From Clostridia bacterium (GTDB lineage Bacteria > Bacillota > Clostridia > Christensenellales > Borkfalkiaceae), in the NCBI GenBank assembly GCA_021203845.1, contig JAJQAK010000185.1:1731-65730 (forward strand): DNA of 64,000 bases, in the 5' to 3' direction. Made by a program: the position numbers and the translations under genes. The number at the start of each line of letters is the position of its first letter. Within the stretch, counting starts at the first letter, position 1. A model generated the notes under the pieces. It did no database searches and was not told the origin of the DNA. It was given only the letters and a program-made list of their open reading frames with translations. Of the stretch, positions 21,736 to 51,814 are shown in pieces.

Positions 21736-23355
21736 TCAATCAATAAAATCTTCTATCATGTCGGTGAAGTAGTCCGGCATTTTTTCGCCTTTTACATACA
21801 TACAGAAAACCTCGGCAAAAAATTCACTCGCACTTGTCGAGCCGTAGTCCGAGACTTTCTTTATGTCGCCGGTTTGTTTCGCCTTCGCGTACGCCGCGCC
21901 GACTTTCAATGCTTGCTGATACTGCCTGTGGTCTTCTATATCCTTTTTGTAGGCCGTGTATGTTTCATACATCCGCTGTGTGGTCAAGTCTTCTATGTCG
22001 TCCATGTCTATCTGCTTGCTTGCGAGAAGCTCCGCATATTCTCCCTTGACCTTATCGCGCTCATAACCCCATTCCTCTATCAGACTCTCGCTTGCCCAGC
22101 ATCCGTCTACAAAACTTTTATTCATAAGTCCGTGGCCGAGTTCGTGAACCATAACCCCGGCGGCCGTGTCGTAAACCGTCCATCTTTTATAGCTCTTATG
22201 TTTGGGCTCGTTGAGTCCTATGTCTGTGGAGTATAAGTCTCTTATTCCTAACTCGCCGTCGTCTCTTGTGCCGTATCGCCAGTACGCACGGGCGTTCGCC
22301 AAGTCGTCATTCCACGATTTACTGCCGGTGTCAACTTCTATTTTACTCGGCACGATGCCGTAGTTTTCTCTTATCGTGAGTATGGCGTCGCTCATTTGAT
22401 TGGCCTTGTCGATATTCATTCCCGATACCTTTCCCCACTTCGCGACGTCTATTCCGAGTTCCTTGCTTAAATGGCCCGTAACCTCATCCTCGGTATCGAA
22501 GTGTTTATAGGTCTTGATTCCGGTTTTTCTCTTTTCTCCCCTGTGTTCGGCGAGCTTTTTCTGCCTTTCCGCTCTCGCTTCCCTCATCGGTTTCAGCTGT
22601 TCCAAAAGTTTTTTGTCCTTGCCTCCGGAAAGCGTGTCCATCATGTCATTATAAATCTCGGTGATATATTTCTTAACATCGGCATCTCCCTCATCGGTTA
22701 TACCGTCTATACTGCTTTTTATTTCCGTCAATATACGATTCAAGGCTTTGGTGTAATCCGCCGCCTTCTTACGTTTCCCTTGAGCTTTTAAGTCTATGAT
22801 TCTTTCATTTGCTCTTTTTGCGCTAAAAGCCGACTGTAATCCCTCAATGCAGCTTTGTATGGAATTAAATACGGAGTCCGCCATACCGCCTGTATTCTCT
22901 CTCGCCTTCTTGAGCTCGTCTCTGCCTTTGCTGTAAAGATTGAATATGTGAGCAAAATCCTGCGTGTATGTCTGGTACTTTATTGCGCTCTTTATGCAAC
23001 CCATTATTTCATCAACGCTCTCTCGTCCGGCGTCTATCGCCTTCTGCATCGTCTTATCGAAATCGCCTTTCTTTTTGAGCGTGCCTTTCTTCGGCTCAAA
23101 GCCCTCCATTGACCCGTGTTTCTGAAGATATGAGTATGCCTCTGTAGGAGAAATGCCTTTACCCTTCAATGCCTCCCAAGCCTGTTTGGGTGTCGTTTTT
23201 TCGGGTAAATCAATGCCGTATTTTTGACAAAGACCATACGGAAGTCGTGTGTTTCCGTGTCCCGTTTCCGAGGCCGTCTCGGTTTCGTCCTCATCGGCAT
23301 CCATATGCAAATACATTCGTATCATTCTGTTGCGTTCAAAACTTATGCATCTCAC
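21736..23355 (-). CDS. Module-tagged HExxH zinc metallopeptidase
   Basis: 539-aa ORF. The GTG start overlaps the upstream stop as GTGA. The N-terminus is MIRMYLHMDADEDE...GHGNTRLPYGLCQKYGIDLPEKTTPKQAWEALKGKGI. The C-terminus has VMVHELGHGL (about 22122-22155) and ...SEFFAEVF, a gluzincin-like third ligand. Confidence 0.75.
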   Translation of the reverse strand: MRCISFERNRMIRMYLHMDADEDETETASETGHGNTRLPYGLCQKYGIDLPEKTTPKQAWEALKGKGISPTEAYSYLQKHGSMEGFEPKKGTLKKKGDFDKTMQKAIDAGRESVDEIMGCIKSAIKYQTYTQDFAHIFNLYSKGRDELKKARENTGGMADSVFNSIQSCIEGLQSAFSAKRANERIIDLKAQGKRKKAADYTKALNRILTEIKSSIDGITDEGDADVKKYITEIYNDMMDTLSGGKDKKLLEQLKPMREARAERQKKLAEHRGEKRKTGIKTYKHFDTEDEVTGHLSKELGIDVAKWGKVSGMNIDKANQMSDAILTIRENYGIVPSKIEVDTGSKSWNDDLANARAYWRYGTRDDGELGIRDLYSTDIGLNEPKHKSYKRWTVYDTAAGVMVHELGHGLMNKSFVDGCWASESLIEEWGYERDKVKGEYAELLASKQIDMDDIEDLTTQRMYETYTAYKKDIEDHRQYQQALKVGAAYAKAKQTGDIKKVSDYGSTSASEFFAEVFCMYVKGEKMPDYFTDMIEDFID

Positions 23356-24278
23356 GTTGCGCCTCCTCCCTTTTTAGCGGAAACCAATTTTTGTTTAAGA
23401 CCAGAATGCGTTTTAATATTTGTTCTCCTCGCCCAATCCATAGGAATAATCAGAGGTTCATCGTCGCCACCGTGTGTCGGAAGCTCGATGCCCTTAATTT
23501 CCCATACACCACGCCGTGTGATATTTTTATCAGTGGTGTCAAAAAATGTCCCATCCAACCATTCGGGAGTTGCGACAGAAATGCCTTTCTCCGGTCTGTT
23601 TTCCATGGAATTATAGGAGTTGTGATACGTTCCACCATAAGTGTCGATTGAGGGCTCGCCGATTCTATAATATGTTTTAATTTCGGGTACGTCCCATTTT
23701 GGGTATTCCAGCCCCAAACACATCATCATCTGTGCATCAAATGACAAGTCATTAAGTTTGCCCCCATAAAGTAATTCTTCGTATGTCTTGCCTTCTGCGG
23801 CATATTTCTGTCCACGAGTTACCAAATCTCTTATTTTGTTGAGCGAGTATTGATTATATTTACCAAACTGTTTTTCTCTCGGATTAACATATTTTTTTTT
23901 CTCCACGTCTTTAGATGTGGCTCTTGCCGTATTTATGAAAACGATGTCGTTACTCTTGTCACTATTGTGAGGTTCTTTGTTGTTGTCTTTCGGTGCGACT
24001 GCCTTTTCTTTGGGCTTAAAGTCTTTGACCGAGCCCGTCTCTTTTAGGTGTCTGAACACTTCTTGAGCCTTAATGCCTTTTCCTTCTAAAGCATCCCATG
24101 CATCTTTTGGGGATGCCCCCTCCGGTAAATCTATGCCGTATCTCTTACAGAGCCCGAAAGGTATTCGGGTATTCCCACCATAATTCTTTTTCGGCTCTCT
24201 TTCTTCATCATCTTCGGCATCCAAGTGAAGTATTCTGTTAATCATGCGGACTCGCGCCTTTTCCGTTTCTGTTGACAT
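23352..24278 (-). CDS. Module-tagged protein with unknown ~200-aa cargo
   Basis: 308-aa ORF. The N-terminus is MINRILHLDAEDDEE...GGNTRIPFGLCKRYGIDLPEGASPKDAWDALEGKGI. Confidence 0.7.
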   Translation of the reverse strand: MSTETEKARVRMINRILHLDAEDDEEREPKKNYGGNTRIPFGLCKRYGIDLPEGASPKDAWDALEGKGIKAQEVFRHLKETGSVKDFKPKEKAVAPKDNNKEPHNSDKSNDIVFINTARATSKDVEKKKYVNPREKQFGKYNQYSLNKIRDLVTRGQKYAAEGKTYEELLYGGKLNDLSFDAQMMMCLGLEYPKWDVPEIKTYYRIGEPSIDTYGGTYHNSYNSMENRPEKGISVATPEWLDGTFFDTTDKNITRRGVWEIKGIELPTHGGDDEPLIIPMDWARRTNIKTHSGLKQKLVSAKKGGGAT

Positions 24279-24290
24279 ATTTCACTCCAT

Positions 24291-24324: not shown

Positions 24325-24609
24325 TCACATTATCGGCATATTTATAGGCACCTCGTCGCAGGCCTTGAGAACTTTCCTCCAGCCCTTCGTCTCGTCCTCG
24401 CCAATGCCCGGCTCTTTCAAATGCTTGTTGCAAATCTTTCTGTACCCACCAAGCCTTTCCTCGGCCCACTTTGACGCCTCACCGTATGTCATTCGGCCCT
24501 CTTTCTTCATTTTGTCGCCGTACATCAATAGGTCGTTCGTGTAACCCATTGACTCGACAACCTTCTTGTCTATTGCCTTTACTTTACCGTATAAAGTTTT
24601 CCATTCCAT
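24325..24609 (-). CDS. Small protein, W-x-x-L-x-x-C-x-x-x-P family
   Basis: 94 aa, MEWKTLYGKV...KGWRKVLKACDEVPINMPIM. It is clearly paralogous to 24621..24908. Confidence 0.7.
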   Translation of the reverse strand: MEWKTLYGKVKAIDKKVVESMGYTNDLLMYGDKMKKEGRMTYGEASKWAEERLGGYRKICNKHLKEPGIGEDETKGWRKVLKACDEVPINMPIM

Positions 24610-24620
24610 GATTTTACCCT

Positions 24621-24908
24621 CTACATCAACGGCATATCAATCGGCACGGCGAGACAGGCATCCAGCGCTTTCTTCCAGCCCTTGTACTCCTCACGGTTTG
24701 TCTCCGCGGTTTCCTTCATGTGTTTGCGACAGACTTTCTCGCATTTCTCCAGCGTCGCCCTGTACTTGTCGCAGGCATCCGGATATGTCTCCGCCCCCTC
24801 TTTTTTCATTTTACCGCCCGACAACATTAACGTGCTTGAATAGTTGAGGGCTTTGTGTACCTTCTCGTCTATCTTCTTCGCTCTGTCGTAAACGTCTTTC
24901 CATTCCAT
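24621..24908 (-). CDS. Small protein, W-x-x-L-x-x-C-x-x-x-P family
   Basis: 95 aa, MEWKDVYDRA...KGWKKALDACLAVPIDMPLM. Its RBS is GGGAGGTAG. Confidence 0.7.
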   Translation of the reverse strand: MEWKDVYDRAKKIDEKVHKALNYSSTLMLSGGKMKKEGAETYPDACDKYRATLEKCEKVCRKHMKETAETNREEYKGWKKALDACLAVPIDMPLM

Positions 24909-24982: not shown

Positions 24983-26632
24983 TCAGTCTAAATATTCTTC
25001 CACCAAGTCAATCATATAGTCGGGAAGTTCCTCACCTAGTGCGTATGCGGTGAAACATTCGGCGAAAAACTCGTGCGTGTTCGTCGCGCTATACTTTGAC
25101 AGATATTTCTCTATATCACCGTTGTTGCTCGCCCTTGAAAAGACTTGATTTGTGTCTATGTACAGCCTGACGGCTTGAGGATGCTCTCTGTATTTTTGAA
25201 ACAGGCTTCCGTAGTCTTTTGCCGTCTTTTCGACCTCATAGTTAAACTCGTCATAACTCATCGTGCCGTCTGCCAAGTCTTTCCCGTGTTCGTCGTAAAC
25301 GGACTTCCTCGCATTGTTGAGCCATTCGTCCATGAGTAGTGTGTCGTGGTAGTCTATTTCGCTTACGACCTTTTTCTCCATTACGCCGTGCCCCATTTCG
25401 TGCGTCACGGAGCCCCTCGGAGAGTAATTGACAACTATTCGTTTAAATCCATATCCGCTGTTTTTGATTTCGTTGTTGCCTTTGTATTCCAAATTCACCA
25501 AATACAGCTTGCTCGCTCCGTACTCCCATGCTGCGCAGGCGCCCTGTAGCGCCTTGTCTTGATACGTGCCCATCGCTATTGTTTGGGGCTTAATATCGTA
25601 ATCGACTTCCAGCGTCTGAAGCGTGCTGTATATCTCGTTCGCCTTGCCTATCGCGTCCGGTGAGGCTTTTCCGAGACCCATGACGTTCGACATATTGCCT
25701 TCCATTCCGAGTGCCTTACCGACGTCCTCCACGCTGTCAAACGTCCTATGTTCCACCAGTTTGGTCTTTCTTTTCTTCCCGCGATTCTTGTCACACTCGG
25801 CGCGGAATTTTTCTCTGCCTTTGACGTAATCCTCTTTTGCGTGTGCGGCTTTTTGTTTCATCATTTCGTCCACGTTGTCGAGGTCGCGTTGCAATTCGTC
25901 CCTTTTGGTTTTGAGCCAGCCGCTTATCTCCGAGTCACATCCGTCCGTCTTGGCAATTTCTGCATCCATCCACTTGAGCTTGTCATTGAGGCTGTCTTTC
26001 CAAAAAGCAACATCGCCTTTTTTGTTTTCTATGCTGTCCTTTATATTCTCAAATGTGTTGAGTCCCGAAAAATACCACGTGAGCGCTCTGACGGTCGCAT
26101 ACGTCGATTTTATTGCTTTCCCTTCATCGCTTCTCTTGTCGTATTTGTTTTCCATGTGGCGCATTACCGCGTCCCACTCCGGGCGGTCATGCACGAAATT
26201 GTCATATGTGCGGTAATCGGCCCCGTTGTCCTCCAGCTCTTTCTTCCATTTGTCGAAGCAGTTCTTGAGTTTGTCGCGGAAACCCGTGAACGTCTTTCTG
26301 TCCTCGCCGGACAGATTGAGCGTGTCTATGTCTATCGCTTTTTTCGCGGGCTTTGAGGTTTTCTTTTTCGGCTCGAAGCCTTTCACCGTGCCGTTCTTCT
26401 CAAGATACTGATACACAGCTTTTGAGTTTATACCCTTCCCCTCCAATGCGTCCCATGCGTCTTTGGGGGATGCACCTTCGGGGAGGTCGATATTGAAACG
26501 CTTGCATAACCCAAACGGTATACGTGTGTTCCCTCCGTGTCCCTTTGGGGATTCCCTGTCCTCGTCCTCATCGGCGTCAAGGCGCAATATGCGTCTTATC
26601 ATATTATCCCTCGCATTTCTTGCTTTCTGCAT
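24983..26632 (-). CDS. Module-tagged HExxH zinc metallopeptidase
   Basis: 549-aa ORF. The N-terminus is MIRRILRLDADEDED...GGNTRIPFGLCKRFNIDLPEGASPKDAWDALEGKGI. It also has SVTHEMGHGV (about 25376-25412) and THEFFAECF. Confidence 0.75.
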   Translation of the reverse strand: MQKARNARDNMIRRILRLDADEDEDRESPKGHGGNTRIPFGLCKRFNIDLPEGASPKDAWDALEGKGINSKAVYQYLEKNGTVKGFEPKKKTSKPAKKAIDIDTLNLSGEDRKTFTGFRDKLKNCFDKWKKELEDNGADYRTYDNFVHDRPEWDAVMRHMENKYDKRSDEGKAIKSTYATVRALTWYFSGLNTFENIKDSIENKKGDVAFWKDSLNDKLKWMDAEIAKTDGCDSEISGWLKTKRDELQRDLDNVDEMMKQKAAHAKEDYVKGREKFRAECDKNRGKKRKTKLVEHRTFDSVEDVGKALGMEGNMSNVMGLGKASPDAIGKANEIYSTLQTLEVDYDIKPQTIAMGTYQDKALQGACAAWEYGASKLYLVNLEYKGNNEIKNSGYGFKRIVVNYSPRGSVTHEMGHGVMEKKVVSEIDYHDTLLMDEWLNNARKSVYDEHGKDLADGTMSYDEFNYEVEKTAKDYGSLFQKYREHPQAVRLYIDTNQVFSRASNNGDIEKYLSKYSATNTHEFFAECFTAYALGEELPDYMIDLVEEYLD

Positions 26633-26933: not shown

Positions 26934-28508
26934 TTAAGCCCACTCAGTTTTACTGCCCCCCCCCGAAGTGGTTGCCTTGGGGCTGTTTGCCGCTGAAACG
27001 TCGCTACCTTTACTTATGTACGGGAGGCTACTGTTTTCTGCCTGTCTTGCCGGCAAAACAACCCCTTCGCCGTTGTCGCCTTTAATGTAGATACCTCTGA
27101 GTTGCCCCGGCTGTTTTGCCCACGGTAGTTCTATTATTTTGTTGGCATAGTAGAACTTTGGATTCTCGAACTGGTTGGCCGTGTCCAAAAGCATTTGAGC
27201 ATTGATTGCCATCCTTGTTTTCCCTGAGGGCGTCTCGACGACATCTGAAAATCCGTTTATGAAAACGCCAAAATCCGAGTATTCTGCTCTCTTGTGTTCC
27301 TCTTTTGCTTTCGACTTGGTAGAATTGACGAACTTTGACAAATCATCCACCGTGATGGGAAGCTCTGTACGTGCAGTTCCCTTGGTATTGTCAATAATCG
27401 TGTACACCATGTGCTGCCAGTTATTTGTCGGCTTGCCGGGGTCGTCTGACACGCTGACGCCACTGTTGAACCTCACTCCCATGTACCCGTTGCTGTAAAA
27501 CTGTTTTCCCTCGCTGTCCACAAGAACTTTGTTGTTTGTGCCTACCTTCTTGTCCGCCGTCCTAATTAGCGCGTTCAACGATTTTGTCTGTTTCTTGCTT
27601 GTGACCGTTTGGGTATTGGGATGCGAAGCCGGTGTGTTTGCCTTTGCGGAGGTTTCCGTCGCAGACTTGGGAATCTCTTTTTTCTCAGGACTTGCGCTCG
27701 TGCCCTTGCCTCGTTCGAGCCCCTCCATCATGGCGGGTCTCACTTTCTCGTGCCATAACTTGTACGTTTCGGGCGCGAATTTGTCCTGTTTCCCCTCACC
27801 GTACAGCTTGTCGATTCTCTTGATGTTTTTGTCGAGGAAGTCCTTGAGTTGTTTCTTCTCCTCGGCAACCGTAGCCGTCATGATACCGGACGCCTCGTCT
27901 TTTTTGATTTGACTTTCCAAATGTTTTTGCTGATAGTACACGTATTGCACGTCCGCATGAGCCACCATCTTCCTCACGGAGTCGCGGCGCAACTTTCTCA
28001 TGTACTCGAAATTTGAGCCGGGCGTAACGCTCCCCTCCTGACCGCCTTGCTTCAAATCCTCTTTCAAGACATTGTTGAGCCTTGCCTTGACGTTCTTCAT
28101 AAGCACGGCCTTCTCTCCACTTGAGCCTTTGAGACTTTTGAACGTCTGCGTTGCGTGGTCTATCGCTCTCTTGGCTTGGGGATATTTTTTGTCAACTTCA
28201 GCGAATTGCTTTGACTGCCACCCTCTCGCCTCTTTGAGTATCTGCCTGTCTTTTGCCTCTTTGACTATCTCCTTTGCCGAGCCGGTCTTTTGAAGCGTCG
28301 CATAAGCCTCCGTGGGGCTCACTCCCTCGCCTTTGAGGGCTTTCCAGCAGTCCTTGGGTGAAAAGCCCGTTGTGTCGATGCCGAGAGCTTTGCAAAGTCC
28401 GTACGGCAGTCTTGTGTTCCCGCCTCCATGATGGGCCTCGCTTTCGTCCCTGTCGCCTTCGGCATCCATGTTCATAAGTTTGTAAATCATACGGTCTCTT
28501 TCTTTCAT
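26934..28508 (-). CDS. Module-tagged protein with helical linker and C-terminal clamp-like domain
   Basis: 524-aa ORF. The N-terminus is MIYKLMNMDAEGDRDE...GGNTRLPYGLCKALGIDTTGFSPKDCWKALKGEGV. The C-terminal ~190 aa are homologous to both repeats of 31569..32795. Confidence 0.7.
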   Translation of the reverse strand: MKERDRMIYKLMNMDAEGDRDESEAHHGGGNTRLPYGLCKALGIDTTGFSPKDCWKALKGEGVSPTEAYATLQKTGSAKEIVKEAKDRQILKEARGWQSKQFAEVDKKYPQAKRAIDHATQTFKSLKGSSGEKAVLMKNVKARLNNVLKEDLKQGGQEGSVTPGSNFEYMRKLRRDSVRKMVAHADVQYVYYQQKHLESQIKKDEASGIMTATVAEEKKQLKDFLDKNIKRIDKLYGEGKQDKFAPETYKLWHEKVRPAMMEGLERGKGTSASPEKKEIPKSATETSAKANTPASHPNTQTVTSKKQTKSLNALIRTADKKVGTNNKVLVDSEGKQFYSNGYMGVRFNSGVSVSDDPGKPTNNWQHMVYTIIDNTKGTARTELPITVDDLSKFVNSTKSKAKEEHKRAEYSDFGVFINGFSDVVETPSGKTRMAINAQMLLDTANQFENPKFYYANKIIELPWAKQPGQLRGIYIKGDNGEGVVLPARQAENSSLPYISKGSDVSAANSPKATTSGGGSKTEWA

Positions 28509-29995
28509 AATTTATCTTCCTCCCCCCACAATGCCTTAACCAATGCGGGTCTTACTTTTTCACGCATGAATTTTCGCCCCTCCTCACTCATCTGTCCTCG
28601 CTTGTAGGTCGTGTCTATTTTGTTGAGACTTTTGTTTAAGAAATTCTCGTACTCGCCTTTTTCATCTTCCAAAACCGAACTCGAAACGCCCTTTTTCTTC
28701 AGGCTGTCGAGCCGGTCTTGCATATGCTTTTGCCTGTAGTACATCCCCGTGACGTCGGCGGTCGCCATCTTCTCGGTTATGTCTTTCTCCCTCGCAGCAA
28801 GTTGTTTCTTTTCCTCCTCGTCTTGAGATTTGAGCCTTGCCCTCGTGGTGTCGCCAAGAGCCCGTTTGAGCGTCGTGTGGACGTTCTGCATAAGATACGC
28901 CGTGTCGCCGTATGAATGTGCGTTTGGGTCTTTTTTGAGCTCTCTGAACGTGTTATCGACGTCTGTGAGCGTCTTTGTAATTTCGGGATATTTTGCATCT
29001 ATGCCCGATTTGCTCTTAACGTCCTCAACCTTCACTATCGCCCTTTCTCCGTTCAATAAAGCGTTGAACTCCGCTTGCGCCTTTCGGGTCGCCTCCGCTC
29101 CATGCTTGGTCGCCTCGCCCACTTTGTCCGCGGCTTGAATGACTTTTTCGAGCCTTTCTCCGGCTTCGGGATGTCTTTCTTTGTATTGTTTTAGGTCTTG
29201 CGGATGCGAACCGAGCTCAAGCACTCCCTTGAGGTCTCTCACTTTGTTGCCGACTTCCTCAATGTCCTTATCGGTTGCCGTACTCGCTCCGCCTATCTTC
29301 TTGAAACAACTTGCCATCGAATTGTAATTGTGGCGGTAGAAGTCACTGTCGGCATCTATGTCTTTTAATGGTTTCAACATTTTGGAAAGCCGTTTTTTGT
29401 CCAGCTCGTCTGTTTCATTGTCTATAAGCTGTTGAAGCGTTTTTCCTGCCGCTATATAATCGGCGTTGCTTTCGTCTCCCCATTGGGGGTAGCTTAAAAC
29501 GCCTTTTGAGAGCATTTTGTCGAACTCTTTCAGCCTTCTTATACTTCCATTGTATGCCGTGGATATGCGGCTCGCCGCCGAGGCGGAATGTGGTATCGCA
29601 AGTTTTGCCTTATGTTCAAGCTCTTTATCGGTTATCGGCGTGTCCTCCGTGGCTCCTTTCGGACGATAATGCGTTGACGAGTGTTGGCTGTTCGTAGTCG
29701 GTTTTGTGCCCCTATAATGCTCCTGCCTAACCTTGTGCTTGTAGTTACTTATATTCTTGTACTTTTTGAGCGAGCCATATGCCTCGTCGGGAGTTATGCC
29801 CTCGCCCTTCAAAGCCTCCCATGCAGCCCTCGGTGACGTGCCCGCCGGCAAGTCTATACCGAACTCCTCACACAGACCGTACGGAAGTCGGTTGTTGCCG
29901 TGACCCCCTCCCTTCTTTTTCTTCGGCTCATCCTCGTCCTCCGCGTCGCCGCGAATGAGGCGATATATCATTCTCTGTCTTTCCTTGGAGCTCAT
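28505..29995 (-). CDS. Module-tagged helical protein, cargo unknown
   Basis: 496-aa ORF. The N-terminus is MIYRLIRGDAEDEDE...GHGNNRLPYGLCEEFGIDLPAGTSPRAAWEALKGEGI. It shares the linker motif YY.QKH...EKVRPA with 26934..28508. Confidence 0.7.
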   Translation of the reverse strand: MSSKERQRMIYRLIRGDAEDEDEPKKKKGGGHGNNRLPYGLCEEFGIDLPAGTSPRAAWEALKGEGITPDEAYGSLKKYKNISNYKHKVRQEHYRGTKPTTNSQHSSTHYRPKGATEDTPITDKELEHKAKLAIPHSASAASRISTAYNGSIRRLKEFDKMLSKGVLSYPQWGDESNADYIAAGKTLQQLIDNETDELDKKRLSKMLKPLKDIDADSDFYRHNYNSMASCFKKIGGASTATDKDIEEVGNKVRDLKGVLELGSHPQDLKQYKERHPEAGERLEKVIQAADKVGEATKHGAEATRKAQAEFNALLNGERAIVKVEDVKSKSGIDAKYPEITKTLTDVDNTFRELKKDPNAHSYGDTAYLMQNVHTTLKRALGDTTRARLKSQDEEEKKQLAAREKDITEKMATADVTGMYYRQKHMQDRLDSLKKKGVSSSVLEDEKGEYENFLNKSLNKIDTTYKRGQMSEEGRKFMREKVRPALVKALWGEEDKL

Positions 29996-44877: not shown

Positions 44878-44881
44878 ATCG

Positions 44882-46286: not shown

Positions 46287-46544
46287 TTATGAATCGCAGT
46301 AGCGAATCGTGTCCTCTATAAACCCCGCGTCAGCATCCGTGACCTTGGCGTTCATATACTTTTTTGCGAGACGCAACATATCCTCCACCGCCTCGTCCTT
46401 TGCGAGACAGGCATCGTACCAGCCCTCAACCCAATCTTCTCGGTCTTTCTTGCTGTAGTCCCTCGGCGCATACTTCGCTATGAACTTGTGAATTGTCTTA
46501 AGCTGTTCTTCCGTGAGCTTTTTGGCTTCTTCGCACATATACAT
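46287..46544 (-). CDS. Small hypothetical protein
   Basis: The track ORF starts at 46559, inside the RBS GGGAGGTGAG. The ATG at 46544 (MYMCEEAKK) has proper spacing. Confidence 0.55.
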   Translation of the reverse strand: MYMCEEAKKLTEEQLKTIHKFIAKYAPRDYSKKDREDWVEGWYDACLAKDEAVEDMLRLAKKYMNAKVTDADAGFIEDTIRYCDS

Positions 46545-46576
46545 AATCTCACCTCCCATCTCTTTCTCTCAAGTAT

Positions 46577-46630: not shown

Positions 46631-48184
46631 TTATTGCTTCCATTCCTCGCTGCCCCATTCAACGGGAATGTCTTCGCCTTTTGCGTTTTTTGAACTCAAC
46701 ACTTTCGCGGGACGCCCGTTGTTGTCGATTCTCACGCAACTGTCGAAGCCCTGTCCGTTTGACATCTCGTCCCATACTTTTCTGCAGCCACCGTCTATCT
46801 CTCTCGTAATGTAACGGAGTGACAAAATACGTCCGGTCTTTACCGCTCTCGTCATCATTCTTCTTGCCGCGTTTGTGTTCTTGACGTCGTTGTATACAAG
46901 ATTAACCTCGTAACCCTGTTTCTTCAACGCCGCGAGATACTTCTTTATTTTCTTGGGGTTTGAGCCGACTATCGGGATTGCGACGTTCGCGCCGTCCATT
47001 GAACCGTCAAAGAACTTTGGCAACAGTTCTTGGTTGAGAATATCCGAGCTTTCCTCGTGAACTTTCCCCGCGCCTTTGCCGTTGTCAAATTCGGGCATCA
47101 TGCTTTTAACCACATCGCTGTCCATGACCATCGCGCCGTAATATTGTGATATTCTGTTCACGGCGACGGATGACTTGCCCGCGGCAGGCGGCCCCATGAT
47201 TAGGAATGCTTTCTTTTCTTTCTTTACCTCTCCAGTGTACTGCTCATCCCCGTTCTCATCTATCACGACACTGCCCGAATGAAGCATTTTCTCGACTATC
47301 GGCTTATGCACGCTGTCGATTCTGTCTTGGTTGTATACAACATTTCCGTTCTCGTCCCTTTCGGGAACGGTTTTGCCGTTGTCATCCTTCATTTTCCCTG
47401 TAAATTTCCACTGTGTTTGGTCTTTTTCGGGAGTTTGGTTGAGTTTCATAAGTTTCTTCACCATCGGGTTTTTTGCGAGCTCACTTATCGGGTACGTCGG
47501 GAACTCCATGAGGTCTTTGTATAGCCCCCTCGCTCTCTCCAATGCCACAGGCGGCTGGTAGTAATTTATACTGTTCACGGACAGTCCCGAAATTTTGGAA
47601 ATCTGTTCGGGCGACATTTTGCGCTTTTTCGCCATGTAGTCCAATAGCCGCGACAGGTTTCTTTGGTCGGCGAACGGTCTTTCCTCCTCATCCAGTTTTT
47701 CAGGATTGACCATTTTAAGTATCTTGCTTTTCGAACCGAACTCCTTTTCGGCATATGTCCTTAACTTGTCGTAAGCCGATTTGCATATATGGGCATCTAT
47801 CATACCTTTCCGCCTATGAGCCGCCTCGCTAAACTGTTCGGGGGGAGTATACGGTTTTTCTCGCTCTCTGCGGTCGCGTCCCGAACCTCCGGTAATCCCC
47901 TTGTCTCTCATTTCTTGAACATACGAGTCTATCGTGCCGTTCTTTTGCAACTCCGCAAACGCGGCCTTGGGCGTTATGCCCTTTCCGGCGAGAGCCTCCC
48001 AACAATCCGTCGGGGAAAACCCTTCGGTGTCTATGCCGAACTCCTCGCATAGACCGTACGGCAAGCGGGTGTTCCCTCCGCCTCCGCTTTGTTTCTTGGA
48101 GGTCTCCTCAGTATCGTCATCCGCATCCATATGCATTATTCTACGTATCATGCGGTCTCTTGCACTTATAAAATTCTTCCCCAT
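46631..48184 (-). CDS. Module-tagged zeta-toxin-like P-loop kinase
   Basis: 517-aa ORF. The N-terminus is MIRRIMHMDADDDTEE...GGNTRLPYGLCEEFGIDTEGFSPTDCWEALAGKGI. The C-terminus has the Walker A motif FLIMGPPAAGKSSV (about 47174-47210) and downstream zeta-like blocks (DSD..., GYEVNLVY). Confidence 0.7.
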   Translation of the reverse strand: MGKNFISARDRMIRRIMHMDADDDTEETSKKQSGGGGNTRLPYGLCEEFGIDTEGFSPTDCWEALAGKGITPKAAFAELQKNGTIDSYVQEMRDKGITGGSGRDRREREKPYTPPEQFSEAAHRRKGMIDAHICKSAYDKLRTYAEKEFGSKSKILKMVNPEKLDEEERPFADQRNLSRLLDYMAKKRKMSPEQISKISGLSVNSINYYQPPVALERARGLYKDLMEFPTYPISELAKNPMVKKLMKLNQTPEKDQTQWKFTGKMKDDNGKTVPERDENGNVVYNQDRIDSVHKPIVEKMLHSGSVVIDENGDEQYTGEVKKEKKAFLIMGPPAAGKSSVAVNRISQYYGAMVMDSDVVKSMMPEFDNGKGAGKVHEESSDILNQELLPKFFDGSMDGANVAIPIVGSNPKKIKKYLAALKKQGYEVNLVYNDVKNTNAARRMMTRAVKTGRILSLRYITREIDGGCRKVWDEMSNGQGFDSCVRIDNNGRPAKVLSSKNAKGEDIPVEWGSEEWKQ

Positions 48185-48197: not shown

Positions 48198-49925
48198 TTA
48201 GTCGTCCATGATTATCTTTGTCACGGCATCCATGTATTCCTCTATGTAATCGGGAAGCTGCTCACCCATGTAGTACATCGTAAAACACTCGGCAAACATC
48301 TCGCACGGCTTGCCGTCCTCATATGCGTATACGGATATTTTGCCCTTGTCACCATGTTTCGAGACCAAATCCCATAGTTTTTTCTCAACGAACTTCCCCG
48401 ATGTAAAAATGACATCTCCGGATTTTAATTTCGTTGCTTCTAGAGTCTGCTTGCTTTTTAACACATCGTCCACGGCGTCTCTCAACATATGTCCCAGCTC
48501 GTGAACCACGAGCGACTCCATTTCCCTGCCCTCTATGAACACATTGTGCCGGCGGCTAGGGTCGGTGTAGGCCTCTCTTGCTTTTTCCAAGTTTGCTTTG
48601 TCTTGTTTTTTTGCAGCGATGTCATTCTCAATTTGCGTTATCGCCTCTTTGTTGCCATCCGTTTTTGCGGTTTTCAAAGACAGCTCCATCTCTGCTATTG
48701 TCTCCTCGGCCTTGCTTATCATTTTGTCATATGTTTTTCTGTATGTTTTTATGGCGGGCAATCGGTTTGTGTTCAAAAAATCCATTTCGTGCCGGCCAAC
48801 TTGCCACCACGCGAGTTTTCCCGTTTTAAACCGATTGCTCGCTCCTATCTTTGCGGGTTTGACGCCATAACTTTCGTATATCGACATCAATGCATTGTTT
48901 ATTTGGTTGCACTGCTCGGCCGTGAACTGCTTTGTGGCATACGCATCCTTGCCGGCTGATTTGCCATGTGCGTCATTGTACATATCTATTCCGAGATTGT
49001 CCTTCGCCCATTTCGCGGCCTCGGCCGGAGTCTTGCACTCACTTACTTTTCGGACGCCCCGCTTGCCCCAGTTCGGGTTTTTCTTCAGCTCGGCCCTTGC
49101 TTCCTGTTTCTTTTTCTCTTGCTCTTTCCTTCTTTGCTCGGCCTCCTCTTGAGCTTTGCGTTTTTTTTCTTTGTTTTCCTCTAGCTGTTTGTCTATCTCT
49201 TCTTGCGGCATGACAATCTTATCGAGCATTTCCTCGCACCATGCCTTCACTTCGTCATCCTCACAGGTTTCCATAGCCTCTTTCGTTCGGCCTATATAGT
49301 CCTTCATGTACGATTTGTGGTTCCCCACTTCCGTAAACCCATGAGCAAGGGCGCTTTTGATATTTCTCGTTTCTCTCTCAACTTCCATTACCGCCGCCAC
49401 GGCTCTGTAATTGTCACAAATTGCTCGATAAACATCACTAACCCCATCGTCGTTTTCGTGTTTTCTGTATATCTCGTAGCTCTCACTTGGATAATTCGGC
49501 GGGTTTCCGGTCAGCCATTCCTTGCCGTTTTTTTCGTTGTCTCGTATTGCCTCGAACCACTCTCTCGTGGCTTTTCTCCTTCCCTTGAATGACTCCCTTT
49601 CTTGGTCATTTAGGTTTAAAGAATCTATCGGGTCTTTCTTTACGGTTTTACTCCCTTTCGGCTTGTACCCCTCTATCGTGCCGTGCTCGTTCAAATATTG
49701 ATAGGCCTCTTTCGGACTCACGTCCTCGCCCTTGAGGGCTTTCCAACAGTCCTTCGGAGTAAAACCCGTGGTATCTATGCCATACTCTTTACATAAACCG
49801 TACGGGAGTCGCGTGTTGCCATGTGAGTGTATTCCTCTCTCATTTCGCTCGTCATCGTCATCGGCGTCCAGCCGCAATATTCTGTTTATCATGTCGTGTC
49901 GTGCGTCGTTTGCCGTGCCGCTCAT
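48198..49925 (-). CDS. Module-tagged HExxH zinc metallopeptidase
   Basis: The track ORF starts at the TTG at 49940, inside the RBS. The ATG at 49925 (MSGTANDARHDMINRILRLDADDDDE...HGNTRLPYGLCKEYGIDTTGFTPKDCWKALKGEDV) is preferred. It also has LVVHELGHML (about 48482-48513) and EMFAECF. Confidence 0.75.
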   Translation of the reverse strand: MSGTANDARHDMINRILRLDADDDDERNERGIHSHGNTRLPYGLCKEYGIDTTGFTPKDCWKALKGEDVSPKEAYQYLNEHGTIEGYKPKGSKTVKKDPIDSLNLNDQERESFKGRRKATREWFEAIRDNEKNGKEWLTGNPPNYPSESYEIYRKHENDDGVSDVYRAICDNYRAVAAVMEVERETRNIKSALAHGFTEVGNHKSYMKDYIGRTKEAMETCEDDEVKAWCEEMLDKIVMPQEEIDKQLEENKEKKRKAQEEAEQRRKEQEKKKQEARAELKKNPNWGKRGVRKVSECKTPAEAAKWAKDNLGIDMYNDAHGKSAGKDAYATKQFTAEQCNQINNALMSIYESYGVKPAKIGASNRFKTGKLAWWQVGRHEMDFLNTNRLPAIKTYRKTYDKMISKAEETIAEMELSLKTAKTDGNKEAITQIENDIAAKKQDKANLEKAREAYTDPSRRHNVFIEGREMESLVVHELGHMLRDAVDDVLKSKQTLEATKLKSGDVIFTSGKFVEKKLWDLVSKHGDKGKISVYAYEDGKPCEMFAECFTMYYMGEQLPDYIEEYMDAVTKIIMDD

Positions 49926-49937: not shown

Positions 49938-49967
49938 CAAAAGAAAAGGGCTTGCCCTCGCAAACCC
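49938..49967 (-). terminator. Intrinsic terminator GGGUUUGC-GAGG-GCAAGCCC-UUUUCUUUUG
   Basis: An 8-bp stem (49967-49960 and 49955-49948, one G-U pair) starts right after the stop of 49968..50258. Its U-tract overlaps the RBS of the next gene. Confidence 0.65.
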
Positions 49968-50258: not shown

Positions 50259-50352
50259 ATTGCGCCTCCGATTAACTATTTAACACGTATAGGTGAAATC
50301 TGCCACATTCTTCAGCCGTTCCCATATCGCGCACCTCAAGACTTTTTACGTT

Positions 50353-50520
50353 TTAATAAATCGGCTCGTTCTTTAAATACTCCTTTTCGAGTTCAAACAA
50401 TTCATCGTACTGCTTTTCGGCATCCTCATCCGTTTCTCCGACGCCCTTCACGTCAAGCTCTATCATGCTCTCCGGTAGTCCGAGCTTTTTCAACTTGCTT
50501 CTAAATTCATCCTTCGTCAT
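50353..50520 (-). CDS. Small acidic ORF (55 aa), below the track cutoff
   Basis: ATG at 50520 is preceded by GGAGGTGATAAAGA. The product is MTKDEFRSKLKKLGLPESMIELDVKGVGETDEDAEKQYDELFELEKEYLKNEPIY. It fills an otherwise empty 248-nt gap. Confidence 0.45.
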   Translation of the reverse strand: MTKDEFRSKLKKLGLPESMIELDVKGVGETDEDAEKQYDELFELEKEYLKNEPIY

Positions 50521-51814
50521 TCTTTATCACCTCCGTGATTATATCGCCAACCTGTTTGGCTATCTCTCTGGGTTCGGTGTTATTAAGATATTCAGACCAT
50601 GCCTCCGCTATGAACTCACTGAGCCCCTGCCCGTTCTTTAGAACTTGCGGAGAAGTCGGGTATGACGAAAGCCCGGTCTCTATCTGCGCCTTCGACAGCG
50701 AGTTGTACAACTTGCGTATTTCAGGGTTCTTGCTTATGCCGTATGTGTGGTCTATCAAATGTCCCACCTCGTGGTCCATGATTGACTTTATTGTGTCACA
50801 ACCTTTAGGGTGAAATCCATTGTTGGACTCTATTCTTGCGTCATGTTCGAGCGAAGCGTAGTTGCCTGTGTTTGAATCCTCCACATAAATTCCGGCAAAC
50901 GGTCTTAAGGCCTCTGCCCACTCTTTCTTTTCCTCGTCATTGAACTGTTTGTATCCGCCGAAAGACTCATCCGTGTAGAACGCCCATCTGCGTCCCTTTT
51001 GCCTTATGAGGGCATTTCTGTTCGCCCACTCCTCGCACCACCAGTCGGGCTTTGACGGCAACGCTCTTTTCACAAACTTGAGGAGTATCGGTTTCTTTGC
51101 TGCCCTTATCTCCTCACGGATTGCGAGCAGTGAGCCGCAACACTGTATCTTGTCTTTGATTTTCGGAGCTCTCGCGAAATTGTCTGCCAAGGAGTTCGCC
51201 ATCGTTTTCGACACCCTAGCATCAACATTCCACCCAAACGAGCAGTTGGGCACTTTGAGTTCATTCTTTATATAATCCGTCACTCCGCTGTTTGTGGCCG
51301 CCGTACAGGGCGCGTAATGCGGCTTCTCTGTTTTCCCCGACTCATTCTTCGAGCCGTCTTTGTCGTCCTCTGAAGCCCCCTCCGACGCCTTATTTGCCGT
51401 GCTTTTATTTTGGGTCTCTTTCTTTACTTTGTCAACATACGGCTTGATGTTTTTGTCCTCTTTCAACGCTTTATAAGCGTCCGTCGCGCTTACGCCCTTA
51501 CCTTCCAGTGCTTCCCATGCCTGTTTGGGACTCGCACCTTCGGGAAGCTTTATACCAAACTCCTCACAAAGGCCGTATGGTAAGCGGGTGTTCCCGCCGT
51601 GCTTTACCTCACCCCCATCTCTTTCCTCATCCTCATTGGCATCCCCATGTGTCATGCGGAATATGTACCTGTCCCTCGCCATTTTTGCGTTTCCGGTGAC
51701 CGGCTTTCCGAGGTAACGCTCGATGTATTCTTTTCTCGCTCTTTCGGTATCTTTCATAACGCGCCCATATGCTAAAATCGCCTCGGTGGGCGATTTCTCG
51801 CCGTCAAGGCCCAC
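50507..51814 (-). CDS. Module-tagged HExxH zinc metallopeptidase (start uncertain)
   Basis: 435-aa track ORF. By alignment with its paralogs the start is more likely MARDRYIFRMTHGDANEDEE...GGNTRLPYGLCEEFGIKLPEGASPKQAWEALEGKGV, at about 51676. It also has IMDHEVGHLI (about 50746-50782) and SEFIAEAW. Confidence 0.7.
   Translation of the reverse strand: MGLDGEKSPTEAILAYGRVMKDTERARKEYIERYLGKPVTGNAKMARDRYIFRMTHGDANEDEERDGGEVKHGGNTRLPYGLCEEFGIKLPEGASPKQAWEALEGKGVSATDAYKALKEDKNIKPYVDKVKKETQNKSTANKASEGASEDDKDGSKNESGKTEKPHYAPCTAATNSGVTDYIKNELKVPNCSFGWNVDARVSKTMANSLADNFARAPKIKDKIQCCGSLLAIREEIRAAKKPILLKFVKRALPSKPDWWCEEWANRNALIRQKGRRWAFYTDESFGGYKQFNDEEKKEWAEALRPFAGIYVEDSNTGNYASLEHDARIESNNGFHPKGCDTIKSIMDHEVGHLIDHTYGISKNPEIRKLYNSLSKAQIETGLSSYPTSPQVLKNGQGLSEFIAEAWSEYLNNTEPREIAKQVGDIITEVIKNDEG
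51774..51802 (-). promoter_or_regulatory. Leader with three mutually pairing segments GGCGA / UCGCC / GGCGA followed by UUUU (attenuator-like)
   Basis: The minus strand reads GGCGAGAAATCGCCCACCGAGGCGATTTT. Segments 1 and 2 would form a GAAA-loop hairpin, while segments 2 and 3 would form a hairpin followed by a U-tract. Confidence 0.35.

Follow-up and report, generated by a model that had tools for sequence, protein, structure and literature searches.

An N-terminal loading signal that is common to diverse cargo is known from the T4 CTS (PMC3012670), P1 DarB N30 (PMC9024508) and the PVC packaging domain (PMC10097599), and fusion of MuF to an ADP-ribosyltransferase (ART) is known from the EFV toxin (PMC5576092). 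Here we describe a domain of about 60-90 residues, hereafter the module, that is common to 13 toxin-like proteins encoded among the head-assembly genes of one phage.

Results

We built an HMM from the module copies and searched it (hmmsearch --max) against the six-frame translation of the window, the whole 64-kb stretch of DNA analyzed. There were 13 significant matches, all on the minus strand (full-sequence E about 4e-43 to 7e-28), and the next best match had an E value of 0.43. The 13 copies, coordinates and consensus given in an earlier note on this DNA were accurate. All copies but one are N-terminal, the remaining one being internal in a portal fusion. The earlier note had also argued, from codon differences, that conservation is at the peptide level, and this holds: at the 17 best-conserved positions, copies that share an amino acid encode it with different codons in 60% of cases, and nucleotide identity there is 55-78%. 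Such scrambling of synonymous sites implies long-term selection at the protein level. The module is a real domain under purifying selection.

The cargos had been described as unrelated. Several distinct families are indeed present, but BLASTP shows this to be an overstatement: there are about eight families, with paralogs, comprising three related HExxH proteins and a lone HExxH protein, three ARTs, three repeat proteins, a zeta-like protein and two singletons. All four HExxH proteins were confirmed. Copy 1 (23080..23343, domain E 1.7e-41) opens g21736 (21736-23355, 539 aa), a putative metallopeptidase of HExxH family A with HELGH at aa 404. Its paralogs are g24983 (24983-26632, 549 aa; copy 3, 26351..26620, E 4.7e-42), which has HEMGH at aa 411 and a cargo 27% identical to that of g21736 over 420 aa, and g48198 (48198-49940, 580 aa; copy 12, 'TTGFTP.DCW' subtype, 49647..49910, E 1.1e-40), with HELGH at aa 480 and a weak ATLF match. 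Copy 13 (51413..51685, E 1.1e-39) lies near the N-terminus of g50507 (50507-51814), whose HEVGH domain is a homolog of the C-terminal half of 'head morphogenesis' proteins of the MuF type and matches phrog_324 at positions 332-608 of 624 (E 8e-15).

Pfam likewise confirmed three ARTs (ADPrib_exo_Tox) and one zeta-like kinase (Zeta_toxin). The ARTs are g33137 (33137-35137, 666 aa; copy 8, 34865..35137, E 4.8e-41), with matches to PF03496 (5e-16) and phrog_16625 (Bxa ART, 4e-27); its paralog g35148 (35148-37127, 659 aa; PF03496 1.4e-5), whose copy 9 (36897..37127, E 1.9e-26) lacks the acidic run, as had been noted, and also the spacer; and an ART fused to the portal. This 1620-aa ORF (38046-42908) runs, by Pfam, portal (Phage_portal_3), NUDIX, module, ART, with copy 10 at aa 939-1018 (about 927-1018 for 39855..40130, E 7.1e-31). 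The zeta-toxin-like kinase is g46631 (46631-48184, 517 aa; PF06414 3e-12), opened by copy 11 ('TEGFSP.DCW' subtype, 47900..48166, E 2.9e-40).

What stands of the clamp-like repeat proteins listed earlier is a set of repeat-containing paralogs: g26934 (26934-28508, 524 aa; copy 4, 'TTGFSP.DCW' subtype, 28242..28508, E 2.5e-38), g28505 (28505-29995, 496 aa; copy 5, 29717..29989, E 1.7e-39) and g31569. The last is an untagged 408-aa ORF (31569..32795, minus strand), 28% identical by BLASTP to the g26934 cargo over 231 aa (E 6e-20). Its frame is open upstream through an A7 run at about 32844-32850, and a -1 shift there would fuse this cargo, through a K/P-rich linker, to a module. The module in question is copy 7 ('TTGFSP.DCW' subtype, 32867..33133, E 9.8e-41), in an ORF (32792-33133) that had been taken for a separate gene; it does carry the module, but it is only 113 aa long and probably represents the 5' portion of a gene that the A7 frameshift has separated from 31569-32795. 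Its product is identical to the NCBI MAG protein LUD47_07695.

The one membrane protein that had been noticed is g29992 (29992-31572, 526 aa), with a TM-like segment at aa 326-344 (Kyte-Doolittle 19-residue maximum 2.18); its copy 6 (31237..31554, E 7.8e-37) has a long Gly/Ser/His spacer. The cargo of g23352 (23352-24278, 308 aa; copy 2, 24000..24263, E 3.2e-42) is without an assigned family: it has no match in Pfam or PHROGs, and tagged homologs elsewhere were not found. Most cargos are unmatched in Pfam and PHROGs, so calling them effectors extrapolates in about half of the cases.

The module consists of a folded core and a lineage-specific leader. An AF2 model of the core (pLDDT 86) gives a helix, a 9-residue extended segment and three more helices; the leader comprises a basic helix, an "h-D-A-acidic" motif and a Gly/Asn spacer. 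We picture a tagged protein as starting with one or two short, probably amphipathic basic helices (consensus YRxRRxxRL; 'ARxRMIxRIL' in the window), followed by a short linear motif, hydrophobic-D-A-(acidic run), and a presumably disordered Gly/Asn/His spacer. Next would come the compact core of about 55 residues, with the predicted order N-T-R-L-P-[FY]-G-L-C helix, extended 'I-x-L-P-x-G-A-T-P', 'D-A-W-x-A-L' helix and two further helices, and then a K/E/P-rich linker and the cargo. The earlier note had guessed at SAP/Rho-N/HeH homology. This is unsupported: no Pfam model matches the module even at E<=10, Foldseek and hhalign against E. coli Rho-N gave nothing, and the basicity of the core is not notable. 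The AF2 model does give the helix, extended segment and helix of that guess.

Searched alone as a profile, the module matched no known family, with no match in Pfam, PHROGs, PDB sequences or Foldseek. It was not found in GenBank phages or plasmids, nor in the literature searched, and it has no existing name. An exhaustive HMMER scan of 1.84 billion proteins nevertheless yielded 588 clusters that contain it. The Pfam-recognized cargos across the family are ADPrib_exo_Tox, Gln_amidase, Zeta_toxin, Rib_hydrolase, ATLF, ART and DUF3626, mainly toxin/effector types; DUF3626 is of a function unknown to Pfam. Among 195 fetched members, 79 to 1886 aa long, the module begins at a median of aa 28 and, in 97% of them, no later than aa 110.

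The neighboring genes (portal, TerL, MuF, DUF2213 protease/scaffold, ParB_N, ArdC-N+MPTase-PolyVal) were all confirmed, and Pfam bears out the domain repertoire of polyvalent proteins. The phage carrying the 13-copy array is contractile-tailed and from a gut-type Clostridia metagenome. On the minus strand lie the large terminase subunit gene (42921..44336; Terminase_6N and Terminase_6C), the gene for an untagged MuF-family minor head protein (20367..21302; PF04233 9e-21; phrog_324 positions 64-328, E 4e-61) and, adjoining the tagged array, the gene for a DUF2213 head maturation protease with a long C-terminal scaffold-like region (18217..20277; PF09979 3e-34; phrog_530 3.5e-66, annotated 'head maturation protease'). 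In about 20 of 26 IMG/VR viral loci the order is ParB-TerS-TerL-[tag]-portal+NUDIX-[tag]-MuF-[tag]-DUF2213 protease/scaffold-cement-MCP, and loci with that head cassette hold 1-4 tagged genes each. Two unrelated phage types have tagged genes beside those for terminase, portal and MuF. The second is SPP1-like (Terminase_3, portal, Phage_min_cap2): in all five such contexts a tagged gene precedes the large terminase gene by 1-3 genes, and in one of the five a further tagged gene follows the MuF-like gene. A third array, L027, has six copies in 25 kb and adjoins 'head morphogenesis' and 'minor head protein' PHROG matches. The carrier can also be swapped: the g50507 cargo, which is fused to MuF in other phages, and the MuF protein of the window cover different parts of phrog_324.

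Small ORFs downstream of tagged genes co-vary with the cargo and not with the tag, which is the behavior of immunity genes; a small ORF follows 89% of MuF-toxin genes (PMC5576092). A cargo identity of 40% between loci L034 and L039 goes with 35% identity between their small ORFs (E 1e-12). Within the window, where all of these ORFs are on the minus strand, paralogous HExxH genes are each followed by paralogous small ORFs. Directly after g21736 is a 96-aa ORF (21330..21620), which has no Pfam match and is a paralog of 24325-24609 (BLASTP E 1e-6); its product is a candidate immunity protein, inhibitor or chaperone. Directly after g24983 are two tandem ORFs (24325..24908; 94 and 95 aa, with 45% identity), whose products may be immunity proteins or inhibitors. 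The portal-ART fusion and the pair of ART genes are separated by two more tandem ORFs (37200..37972; 129 and 128 aa, sharing 48% identity), which may encode ART immunity proteins or inhibitors, and a 90-aa ORF (46287..46559) after g46631 is a candidate antitoxin. None of these last three sets has a match in Pfam or PHROGs.

Discussion

On balance we lean toward the reading that the module is a capsid-loading and delivery tag. The earlier note's proposal of encapsidation, co-injection or processing is consistent with every comparative observation made: the N-terminal position of the module, its place in head cassettes, the kinds of cargo, the swap with a MuF carrier and small ORFs that co-vary with the cargo. 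We infer that the module would act as an N-terminal address label marking effectors for incorporation into the procapsid, the core, or core plus leader helix, docking on an interior component of head assembly. Candidate partners are the MuF-family protein, the portal crown and the DUF2213 protease-scaffold; the last is also a candidate processing enzyme, for which the h-D-A-acidic element may be the cut site. Cleavage there may trim the leader or release cargo from carrier fusions. Tagged effectors would exit together with the DNA, and in the cell just infected they, among them the ARTs, zeta-like kinase, zincins and membrane-segment protein, would act on the host; cognate downstream small ORFs would neutralize them in the producing cell.

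The core may, alternatively, serve some function unconnected with capsids, as suggested by three short family members (90-133 aa) with no phage gene called nearby, and so may not be exclusive to virion cargo. Also against a tag is the fact that fusions to the portal and to other carriers retain the module, although targeting would be redundant there. Two leader patterns count in favor of a tag. First, the leader follows lineage: 27 of the 31 copies from loci of the lineage with the window-type head cassette have it, and 5 of the 6 in L027, against 1 of 13 copies of siphophage type and none of the 4 that look chromosomal. Second, in those internal copies that were examined (the portal fusion of the window, the two P0058 copies, and P0135 with its relatives in L004/L017) the basic helix is absent and the acidic motif is kept, as h-D-A-acidic ('HTDAEDDEDE' in the aligned portal fusion) or, in one P0058 copy, 'RMDEDEEE'. 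This fits a dispensable targeting helix and a retained processing site. The motif was not found in the window's MCP, scaffold/protease, MuF or TerL, so these proteins give no independent sign that it is the site of the DUF2213 protease.

A capsid-loading and delivery tag would have clear precedents in the T4 CTS, P1 DarB N30 and the PVC packaging domain. The module, known here from sequences alone, would then be a new variant of the logic of the T4 CTS, P1 DarB and MuF toxins.

An Old, Protein-Level Repeat

The minus-strand ORFs between 16.6 and 52.9 kb were translated, the N-terminal copies of the module (an unnamed domain of ~60-90 residues, which we also call the tag) were aligned, and the resulting HMM was used to search a six-frame translation of the whole window with filters off. 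Thirteen segments were detected with E values from 4e-43 to 7e-28; the next best match had an E value of 0.43. As the earlier note had described, the pattern opens 12 window ORFs, so that the module is N-terminal in 12 of its 13 copies. The thirteenth is internal, at residues 939-1018 of the 1620-residue ORF 38046-42908, which by Pfam consists of Phage_portal_3, NUDIX, the module and ADPrib_exo_Tox; we refer to it as the portal fusion. Two subtypes of the module lie side by side in the window, one reading '...LPxGA[ST]PK[DQ]AW' and the other, shorter by one residue, '...T[TE]GF[ST]P.DCW'. A linker rich in K, E, P and S follows each window module.

Compared pairwise, the copies have on average 12.5 identical amino acids across the 17 most conserved residues. 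At 60% of those identical residues the codons differ, and nucleotide identity over the most conserved 51 nt is 55-78%. We therefore conclude that the repeats are old and have been kept by selection on the protein, and the previous claim that their codon divergence speaks against recent gene conversion holds. The window is a metagenome-assembled contig, and some of its cargos (the regions after the module) are paralogous, hence gene duplication has happened; the repeats might therefore be an assembly error, or a recent tandem duplication or gene conversion of one 5' segment. We give this explanation virtually no weight. Besides the nucleotide and codon divergence, it is contradicted by the presence of two subtypes within one window and by the occurrence of the same domain in 588 independent protein clusters and on dozens of other contigs. 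Gene conversion and assembly error are ruled out by the codon divergence, the clusters and the contigs.

One tagged ORF appears truncated. The 113-aa tagged ORF 32792-33133 overlaps by 4 nt with an untagged 408-aa ORF, 31569-32795, whose frame stays open through the tail of the tagged ORF. An A7 run lies at ~32844-32850 (minus strand 'gaaaaaaaccc', in window 32780-32900), and a -1 shift on A_AAA_AAC would join module, K/P-rich linker and cargo in one protein. Three explanations of this frame break are conceivable: a sequencing error in the homopolymer, a true pseudogene, or programmed slippage.

A Large Family without a Name

The earlier note could not say whether the module already had a family name. 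Taken alone, it matched no named family in Pfam, PHROGs, a PDB profile search or Foldseek. Pfam assigned nothing to it in the full tagged proteins (E ≤ 0.01) and nothing meaningful in the 13 isolated modules (E ≤ 10); no PHROGs model matched it; and the best hit of a sequence profile search of the PDB was one 28-residue chance match (E 0.3). With one module and the family consensus as queries, tblastn found nothing in 50,697 GenBank phages, even at E ≤ 1, and nothing in 72,556 plasmids, so that no plasmid or conjugative-element copy was found. Literature searches with core motif strings such as LPFGLC produced no relevant paper, their lone match being an unrelated phage-display peptide study.

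An exhaustive HMMER scan of 1.84 billion cluster representatives nevertheless gave 588 members at E ≤ 1e-3, 401 of them at E ≤ 1e-10, and a word-indexed search gave 57 short relatives. The window proteins themselves are singleton clusters. Among representative genomes of 185,579 species there were only two loci, both in Clostridia or Eubacteriales MAGs. We fetched 195 members, which range in length from 79 to 1886 aa; the module starts at or before residue 110 in 97% of them, with a median start at residue 28. It is internal or double in seven family proteins (P0058, P0059, P0061, P0066, P0135, P0166 and P0171). Three of these (P0058, P0061 and P0066), like the window portal fusion, are multi-unit proteins in which the module stands between units. 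P0066 has the architecture NUDIX-module-ART (ART, ADP-ribosyltransferase), the same unit as in the window but without the portal; the window portal+NUDIX ORF continues into a module-ART unit.

Predicted Structure of the Module

AlphaFold2, given a 54-sequence alignment of the whole module, predicted an N-terminal helix, a disordered acidic/Gly segment and a helical core (mean pLDDT 75). For the core alone, ~55 residues modeled from 84 diverse sequences, the mean pLDDT was 85.7, with values of ~90 across the core. In this model a first helix (residues 6-15, LPFGLCxxYG) leads through an extended segment (16-24, IxLPxGATP) to a second helix (25-34, xDAWxALxxK), and further helices span residues 39-49 and 53-60. 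The near-invariant residues are P8, G10, L11, C12, I17, P25, A28, W29, A31, L32 and G37, which look like the core of a fold rather than a catalytic or basic surface. The net charge of the core is -3 to +3 in the window copies and averages +1.9 in the family.

The earlier note had guessed that part of the module resembles the helix-extended-helix (HeH) motifs of SAP and Rho-N domains. This guess agrees with the predicted topology, but no homology in profile, sequence or structure accompanies it. None of the 13 modules matched the HeH, SAP, Rho_N, LEM or Ish1 models of Pfam, even at E ≤ 10, and hhalign against E. coli Rho 1-66, its N-terminal HeH, returned a probability of 0.3%. Foldseek, a weak instrument for domains of ~55 aa, found nothing below E=1 in the PDB with full-module and core-only models or in BFVD with the full-module model. 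DNA binding by the core is not indicated.

The first core helix contains a single cysteine (in G-L-C; Cys40 of the tagged ART protein g33137, column 12 of alignment A5; window ORFs are named by their lower coordinate). Alignment A2 has it in all 54 sequences, and A5 in 82 of its 84 diverse members, the other two having Ala. A lipobox or signal peptide at this position was considered and, on inspection, rejected: the Cys is preceded by Leu, not by Gly, Ala or Ser, a hydrophobic N-region is absent, and the residue lies inside predicted helix 1.

Tagged Genes Lie among Phage Head Genes

The window itself belongs to a contractile-tailed phage. Its tail genes encode sheath, tape measure, baseplate hub and wedge, and fibre, and its head genes a DUF2184 major capsid protein (MCP, 16614-17669), a cement protein, MuF (20367-21302) and TerL; a DUF2213 protein (18217-20277) matches 'head maturation protease' PHROGs. 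Patterns back-translated from the 13 window copies led us to 26 IMG/VR loci (L001-L026, from rumen or gut samples) with 1-4 tagged genes per ~20 kb. A search with the window head proteins showed that ~20 of these 26 share the order ParB-TerS-TerL-[tag]-portal+NUDIX-[tag]-MuF-[tag]-DUF2213-cement-MCP.

A C-terminal NUDIX domain on the portal protein (Phage_portal_3/DUF1073) is conserved in the window lineage (38046-42908 in the window; loci L001-L024), which would place a NUDIX hydrolase at the portal inside the capsid. Another locus, L040, has a 702-aa portal+NUDIX gene at 7407-9515 and, between a 924-aa tagged gene and the portal, an ADP_ribosyl_GH gene (6537-7340) that is possibly an ART antidote. 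At L038, which has an SPP1-type portal and Phage_min_cap2, a gene for an Acb2/Tad1 hairpin protein (2886-3233), resembling anti-CBASS/anti-Thoeris sponges, separates a tagged gene from the terminase genes. Relatives with large cargos, ~1,000-1,250 aa, occupy the interval between TerL and portal (alignment A4; for example L002, L010 and L021); in the window, an ortholog of this large cargo is missing from that interval. Two of them match Pfam Ish1 (E 2e-7) and two match DUF3626. The two proteins with Ish1 matches were not among nine that were rescanned, and no window module matches Ish1.

Eleven further members were located by exact protein sequence. Five of them (P0021, P0107, P0114, P0064 and P0073) lie in an unrelated, SPP1-like cassette, in which the tagged gene is followed by a small ORF, mostly by one or two ORFs including TerS, and then by Terminase_3, portal and Phage_min_cap2; in one such locus a second tagged gene lies a few genes past the MuF-like gene. 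P0153 is upstream of a portal+NUDIX gene. P0058 belongs to locus L027 (positions 1-25661 of the 162.5-kb contig ENA ERZ27257203 k141_4540766), where six module copies occur in 25 kb. Two of the six are in a single 1886-aa protein, which also has a 'zinc-finger protease' PHROG match. Three tagged genes in a row, of ~420 aa, each have 1-2 ORFs of ~90-140 aa behind them, and neighbors match 'head morphogenesis' and 'minor head protein' PHROGs, in an array region that is nearly all Pfam-blank.

P0110 is on a 2.3-kb contig, which is short for context. No phage gene was called near three short members of 90-133 aa (P0039, P0014 and P0050), the first of which lies within two tandem pairs of tagged gene and small ORF. 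At L028 (9136-10629) and L029 (4637-6130), tandem tagged genes of 148 and 126 aa are each followed by a ~70-aa ORF; no phage gene was called nearby, and the neighbors are an AAA ATPase, Metallophos, Endonuclease_NS, a sigma-70 factor and sugar-utilisation genes. These loci could represent a degraded element or a non-phage use of the core domain.

The leader, which precedes the core, varies with this context. It comprises a basic helix, RxRRxxRL, often doubled, followed by the h-D-A-acidic motif and a Gly/Asn spacer. It is present in 27/31 copies from head-cassette loci of the window type and in 5/6 copies in L027, as against one of 13 siphophage-type copies and none of the four chromosomal-looking ones; in these latter groups the core begins at residue 1-40 ('MANNRLPFGLC...'). 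The internal copies examined lack the basic helix but keep an acidic motif. This applies to the portal fusion, both copies in P0058, and P0135 with its relatives in L004 and L017, and the motif is of the h-D-A-acidic form in all except one P0058 copy ('RMDEDEEE'). The h-D-A-acidic motif is absent from MCP, cement, DUF2213, MuF and TerL, and from the N-termini of MCP homologs. The 'FDSADAA' of MCPs was considered as a shared protease site and rejected as part of the capsid fold.

Diverse Cargos with Co-varying Small ORFs

The earlier note had described the cargos as unrelated. BLASTP of the post-module regions upheld the diversity, with ~8 distinct families in the window, but showed that several cargos are paralogous. 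A HExxH family comprises g21736, g24983 and g48198, and g50507 is a separate, fourth HExxH protein. Three ADP-ribosyltransferases (PF03496) are found in g33137, g35148 and the C terminus of the portal fusion. Three repeat-containing paralogs are g26934, g28505 and the untagged g31569. In addition there is a zeta-toxin-like kinase, g46631 (PF06414), and two singletons, g23352 and g29992. One cargo region each is found in 11 of the 13 tagged ORFs, and none in ORF 32792-33133. The singleton g29992 (29992-31572) contains, at residues 326-344, the sole strongly hydrophobic, TM-like segment among the tagged proteins, LVLAAMLGPIGAAMGALLL, which is reminiscent of ejection proteins that insert in the host membrane.

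The survey of related phages proposed in the earlier note revealed further cargo types beyond the window. Most cargos of 126 family members are Pfam-blank. The recognised ones are mainly toxins or effectors (ADPrib_exo_Tox, glutamine deamidase, zeta, ADP-ribosyl cyclase, ATLF and ART), with DUF3626, a family whose function is unknown to Pfam, also among them. The repertoire that the note had likened to that of polyvalent proteins is likewise present in the window by Pfam: ART, zeta, NUDIX, ParB, ArdC-N and MPTase. Two genes that contribute to it have no module. A stand-alone ArdC-N + MPTase-PolyVal gene of anti-restriction type (51933-52898) is just upstream of the tagged group 46631-51814, and a ParB_N gene (45619-46242) is just downstream of it; in other elements, their equivalents are built into polyvalent proteins.

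The same cargo can be attached to different carriers. The window MuF matches positions 64-328 of phrog_324 (E 4e-61), and the cargo of g50507 matches positions 332-608 (E 8e-15). Because these are successive parts of one family, cargo of the g50507 type is covalently joined to the head protein MuF in other phages and carried by the module here. This cargo is also the commonest tagged one elsewhere (19 of ~240 tagged sequences compared). Similarly, the window has an ART cargo fused to its portal, and in the EFV toxin an ART is joined to MuF (PMC5576092). A word-indexed search for the g21736 cargo on other carriers returned the query alone.

Eight small ORFs of 89-129 aa are interspersed among the tagged window genes (21330-21620, 24325-24609, 24621-24908, 26657-26926, 37200-37589, 37586-37972, 46287-46559 and 49968-50258); none has a Pfam or PHROG match. 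They include two paralog families, which correspond to the HExxH and ART cargo families respectively. In one, s24325 and s24621 are 45% identical and s21330 is related; these ORFs are 94-96 aa long and come after the HExxH genes g24983 and g21736. In the other, s37200 and s37586 (128/129 aa) are 48% identical and adjoin ART genes. The 90-aa ORF 46287-46559 comes after the zeta gene. This co-variation extends outside the window: between L034 and L039, the cargos are 40% identical and the downstream ORFs 35% identical (E 1e-12), and among the loci compared there, unrelated cargos have unrelated small ORFs. By position and co-variation, the small ORFs are candidate immunity proteins, inhibitors or chaperones.

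A Label for Capsid Loading?

Overall, the most economical reading of these data is that the module is an N-terminal label that loads effectors into the procapsid for delivery with the DNA. It is plausible, our results strengthen it, and on balance we lean towards it. That the domain exists, is under selection and occupies an N-terminal position, that its genes accompany head genes, that cargos switch carriers and that small ORFs co-vary with them are direct observations. From these we infer packaging and ejection. An assembly component inside the head would be the docking site of the core, alone or together with the leader helix, and the h-D-A-acidic motif would be a candidate site for cleavage by the adjacent maturation protease. 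The motif is kept in carrier fusions, where a targeting helix would be dispensable.

Three observations weaken the loading interpretation. The h-D-A-acidic motif does not recur in MCP, scaffold or MuF, the core is retained in the portal and other carrier fusions, where targeting would be redundant, and some short members have no visible phage neighbors. These leave room for a role of the core after delivery, and this is the main rival: the core would steer the enzymes to one host structure (DNA or nucleoid, membrane, or a protein hub) or hold them inactive until delivery, with encapsidation left to the leader or needing no signal. It would fit with the leaderless core being the part common to siphophage-type and chromosomal-looking members, with a topology that recalls small nucleic-acid- or protein-binding modules, and with the mildly positive average charge of the family. 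We consider it unlikely, if well worth keeping in mind, in view of the lack of homology to any DNA-binding family, the range of core charges on both sides of zero in the window and the mainly buried type of the conserved residues (P, G, L, C, I, W, A). Moreover, it leaves unexplained the strict N-terminal position and why, in two phage types, the genes are so tightly linked to those for terminase, portal and MuF. Their location inside the head morphogenesis cassette would also suit a structural role, in which the module is an oligomerisation or assembly domain, the enzymes are secondary and the tagged proteins are parts of the head interior, for example of an inner body, an ejection channel or the accessories of the scaffold. 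The TM-like segment of one member, as in ejection-channel proteins, the homology of the g50507 cargo to part of a 'head morphogenesis' family, and the conservation of ~1,000-1,250-aa cargos between TerL and portal in relatives point the same way. But cargo turnover is high, several window cargos having no tagged homolog elsewhere, and copy number varies from 1-6 per ~20-25-kb locus to 13 in ~30 kb of the window. The recognisable cargos, moreover, are mainly toxin-type enzymes with co-varying small ORFs, which would be unexpected for core structural proteins, and we judge this explanation distinctly improbable.

Polymorphic toxins are laid out in the same way, with a conserved domain at the N terminus, a variable toxin at the C terminus and a small cognate ORF, and one could imagine that the module directs prophage-encoded toxins out of the bacterium, by a T7SS-like or lysis-dependent route, for interbacterial competition. 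The short tandem pairs of tag and small ORF in bacterial-looking contexts could be taken in this sense, as could the hosts, which are Firmicutes, where LXG/T7SS toxins are common. However, Pfam recognised no LXG, WXG or other trafficking domain, there is neither a signal peptide nor a hydrophobic N-terminus, and none of the Pfam-annotated neighborhoods showed a secretion-system gene; the genes are interspersed with those for terminase, portal and MuF, and one copy is covalently part of the portal. Export of this kind is the least probable of the functions considered here.

Returning to capsid loading, we can propose something bolder, with slightly less than even confidence: that the 'LPFGLC' domain is an undescribed, portable capsid-loading domain that defines a new phage-borne family of polymorphic effectors in phages of gut and rumen Clostridia, where one folded label, with a lineage-specific helix and processing motif, loads at least a dozen enzymes, each with a cognate neutralising protein. 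If true, this would amount to a modular 'tagged ejectome', a polyvalent arsenal divided among separately encoded, exchangeable cassettes. What happens in the first minutes of infection is decided by injected phage proteins, through anti-restriction, host shut-off and superinfection exclusion. Because each is unique, such proteins are nearly impossible to recognise in uncultured phages. A conserved, searchable label would give bioinformatics direct access to the proteins that this phage group ejects, and more generally to injected effectors in uncultured phages; it marks at least 588 protein clusters, mostly with cargos of unknown function. With its 13 tagged units and ~8 cargo families, the window is an extreme case, and suggests how polyvalent mega-proteins and single-effector genes interconvert. 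The co-varying small ORFs would provide a ready catalogue of effector-inhibitor pairs. Were the tag sufficient for loading, it would also serve, as the T4 capsid-targeting sequence (CTS) and the packaging domains of the contractile injection system PVC already do, as a compact natural means of loading foreign proteins into phage heads, and it could be used to engineer phage protein delivery.

Comparison with Known Systems

The T4 CTS is a peptide of ~10 residues that is removed by gp21. The loading reading of the module parallels it (PMC3012670): as in T4 IPI-III and Alt, and in P1 DarB, an N-terminal element is common to diverse, fast-evolving anti-host proteins of one phage, and as in T4, a prohead-type protease is encoded alongside (DUF2213 in the window). 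In DarB, whose signal measures between 9 and 30 residues, the N-terminal 30 residues (N30) suffice to load a reporter; no common sequence unites the P1 Dar proteins (PMC9024508). Unlike the short, unstructured, cleaved CTS, however, the module consists of a folded ~55-residue core and a 25-45-residue leader. It also differs from the T4 and P1 signals in the breadth of its conservation, which extends over at least 588 protein clusters and two phage types, and in having no sequence similarity to them.

With MuF polymorphic toxins (PMC5576092) the tagged proteins share a conserved N-terminal part that names the delivery route, a variable C-terminal toxin and a small ORF downstream. Both are encoded with portal and terminase genes, both include ART cargo, and the g50507 cargo is the domain that follows MuF in phrog_324. 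Yet the module is 5-6 times smaller than MuF, no tagged protein matches PF04233, and MuF is a separate, untagged gene in the window. As many as 13 tagged genes occur per genome, far more than the single MuF toxin gene that the 2017 study by Jamet and colleagues would lead one to expect.

The repertoire of ART, zeta, NUDIX, ParB, ArdC-N and MPTase-PolyVal, and the predicted packaging and injection, are those of polyvalent proteins (PMC5512222). But where those proteins combine 2-15 effector domains in one polypeptide, the tagged ones are mostly encoded one cargo at a time, by separate genes that each bring their own tag; among the window tagged ORFs, only the portal-NUDIX-module-ART fusion has multiple effector domains. 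The module also differs in having no matching Pfam or PHROGs model and no plasmid or conjugative-element copy.

In PVC, an extracellular contractile injection system (eCIS), packaging domains are N-terminal, partly disordered, and necessary and sufficient for loading diverse payloads into a contractile nanomachine (PMC10097599), and payload genes cluster beside the structural operon, an arrangement that recalls the tagged genes. However, PVC has no capsid, terminase or portal, and its tube is loaded with the ATPase Pvc15. The window, in contrast, is a complete phage that encodes MCP, portal, terminase and maturation protease; its tagged genes are in the head module rather than the tail module, and its label has a folded core. 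The likeness to the HeH motifs of SAP, LEM, Rho-N and Ish1 domains is confined to the first two predicted core helices, joined by a 9-residue extended segment, and to a superficially similar 'G-I-x-L-P...W-x-A-L' pattern; the core has two extra helices, is not consistently basic, and matches none of these domains in profile, sequence or structure. Finally, unlike LXG/T7SS toxins, the modules have no LXG Pfam match and the annotated neighborhoods no T7SS or WXG100 genes.

The module is thus neither a CTS, nor a MuF domain, nor an eCIS payload domain, nor a demonstrable HeH, and its proteins, with the exception of the portal fusion and a small number of relatives, are not polyvalent. It follows the trafficking logic of the CTS and MuF types, yet it forms an unnamed family outside them, and its multiplicity, 13 units in one genome, is unusual.
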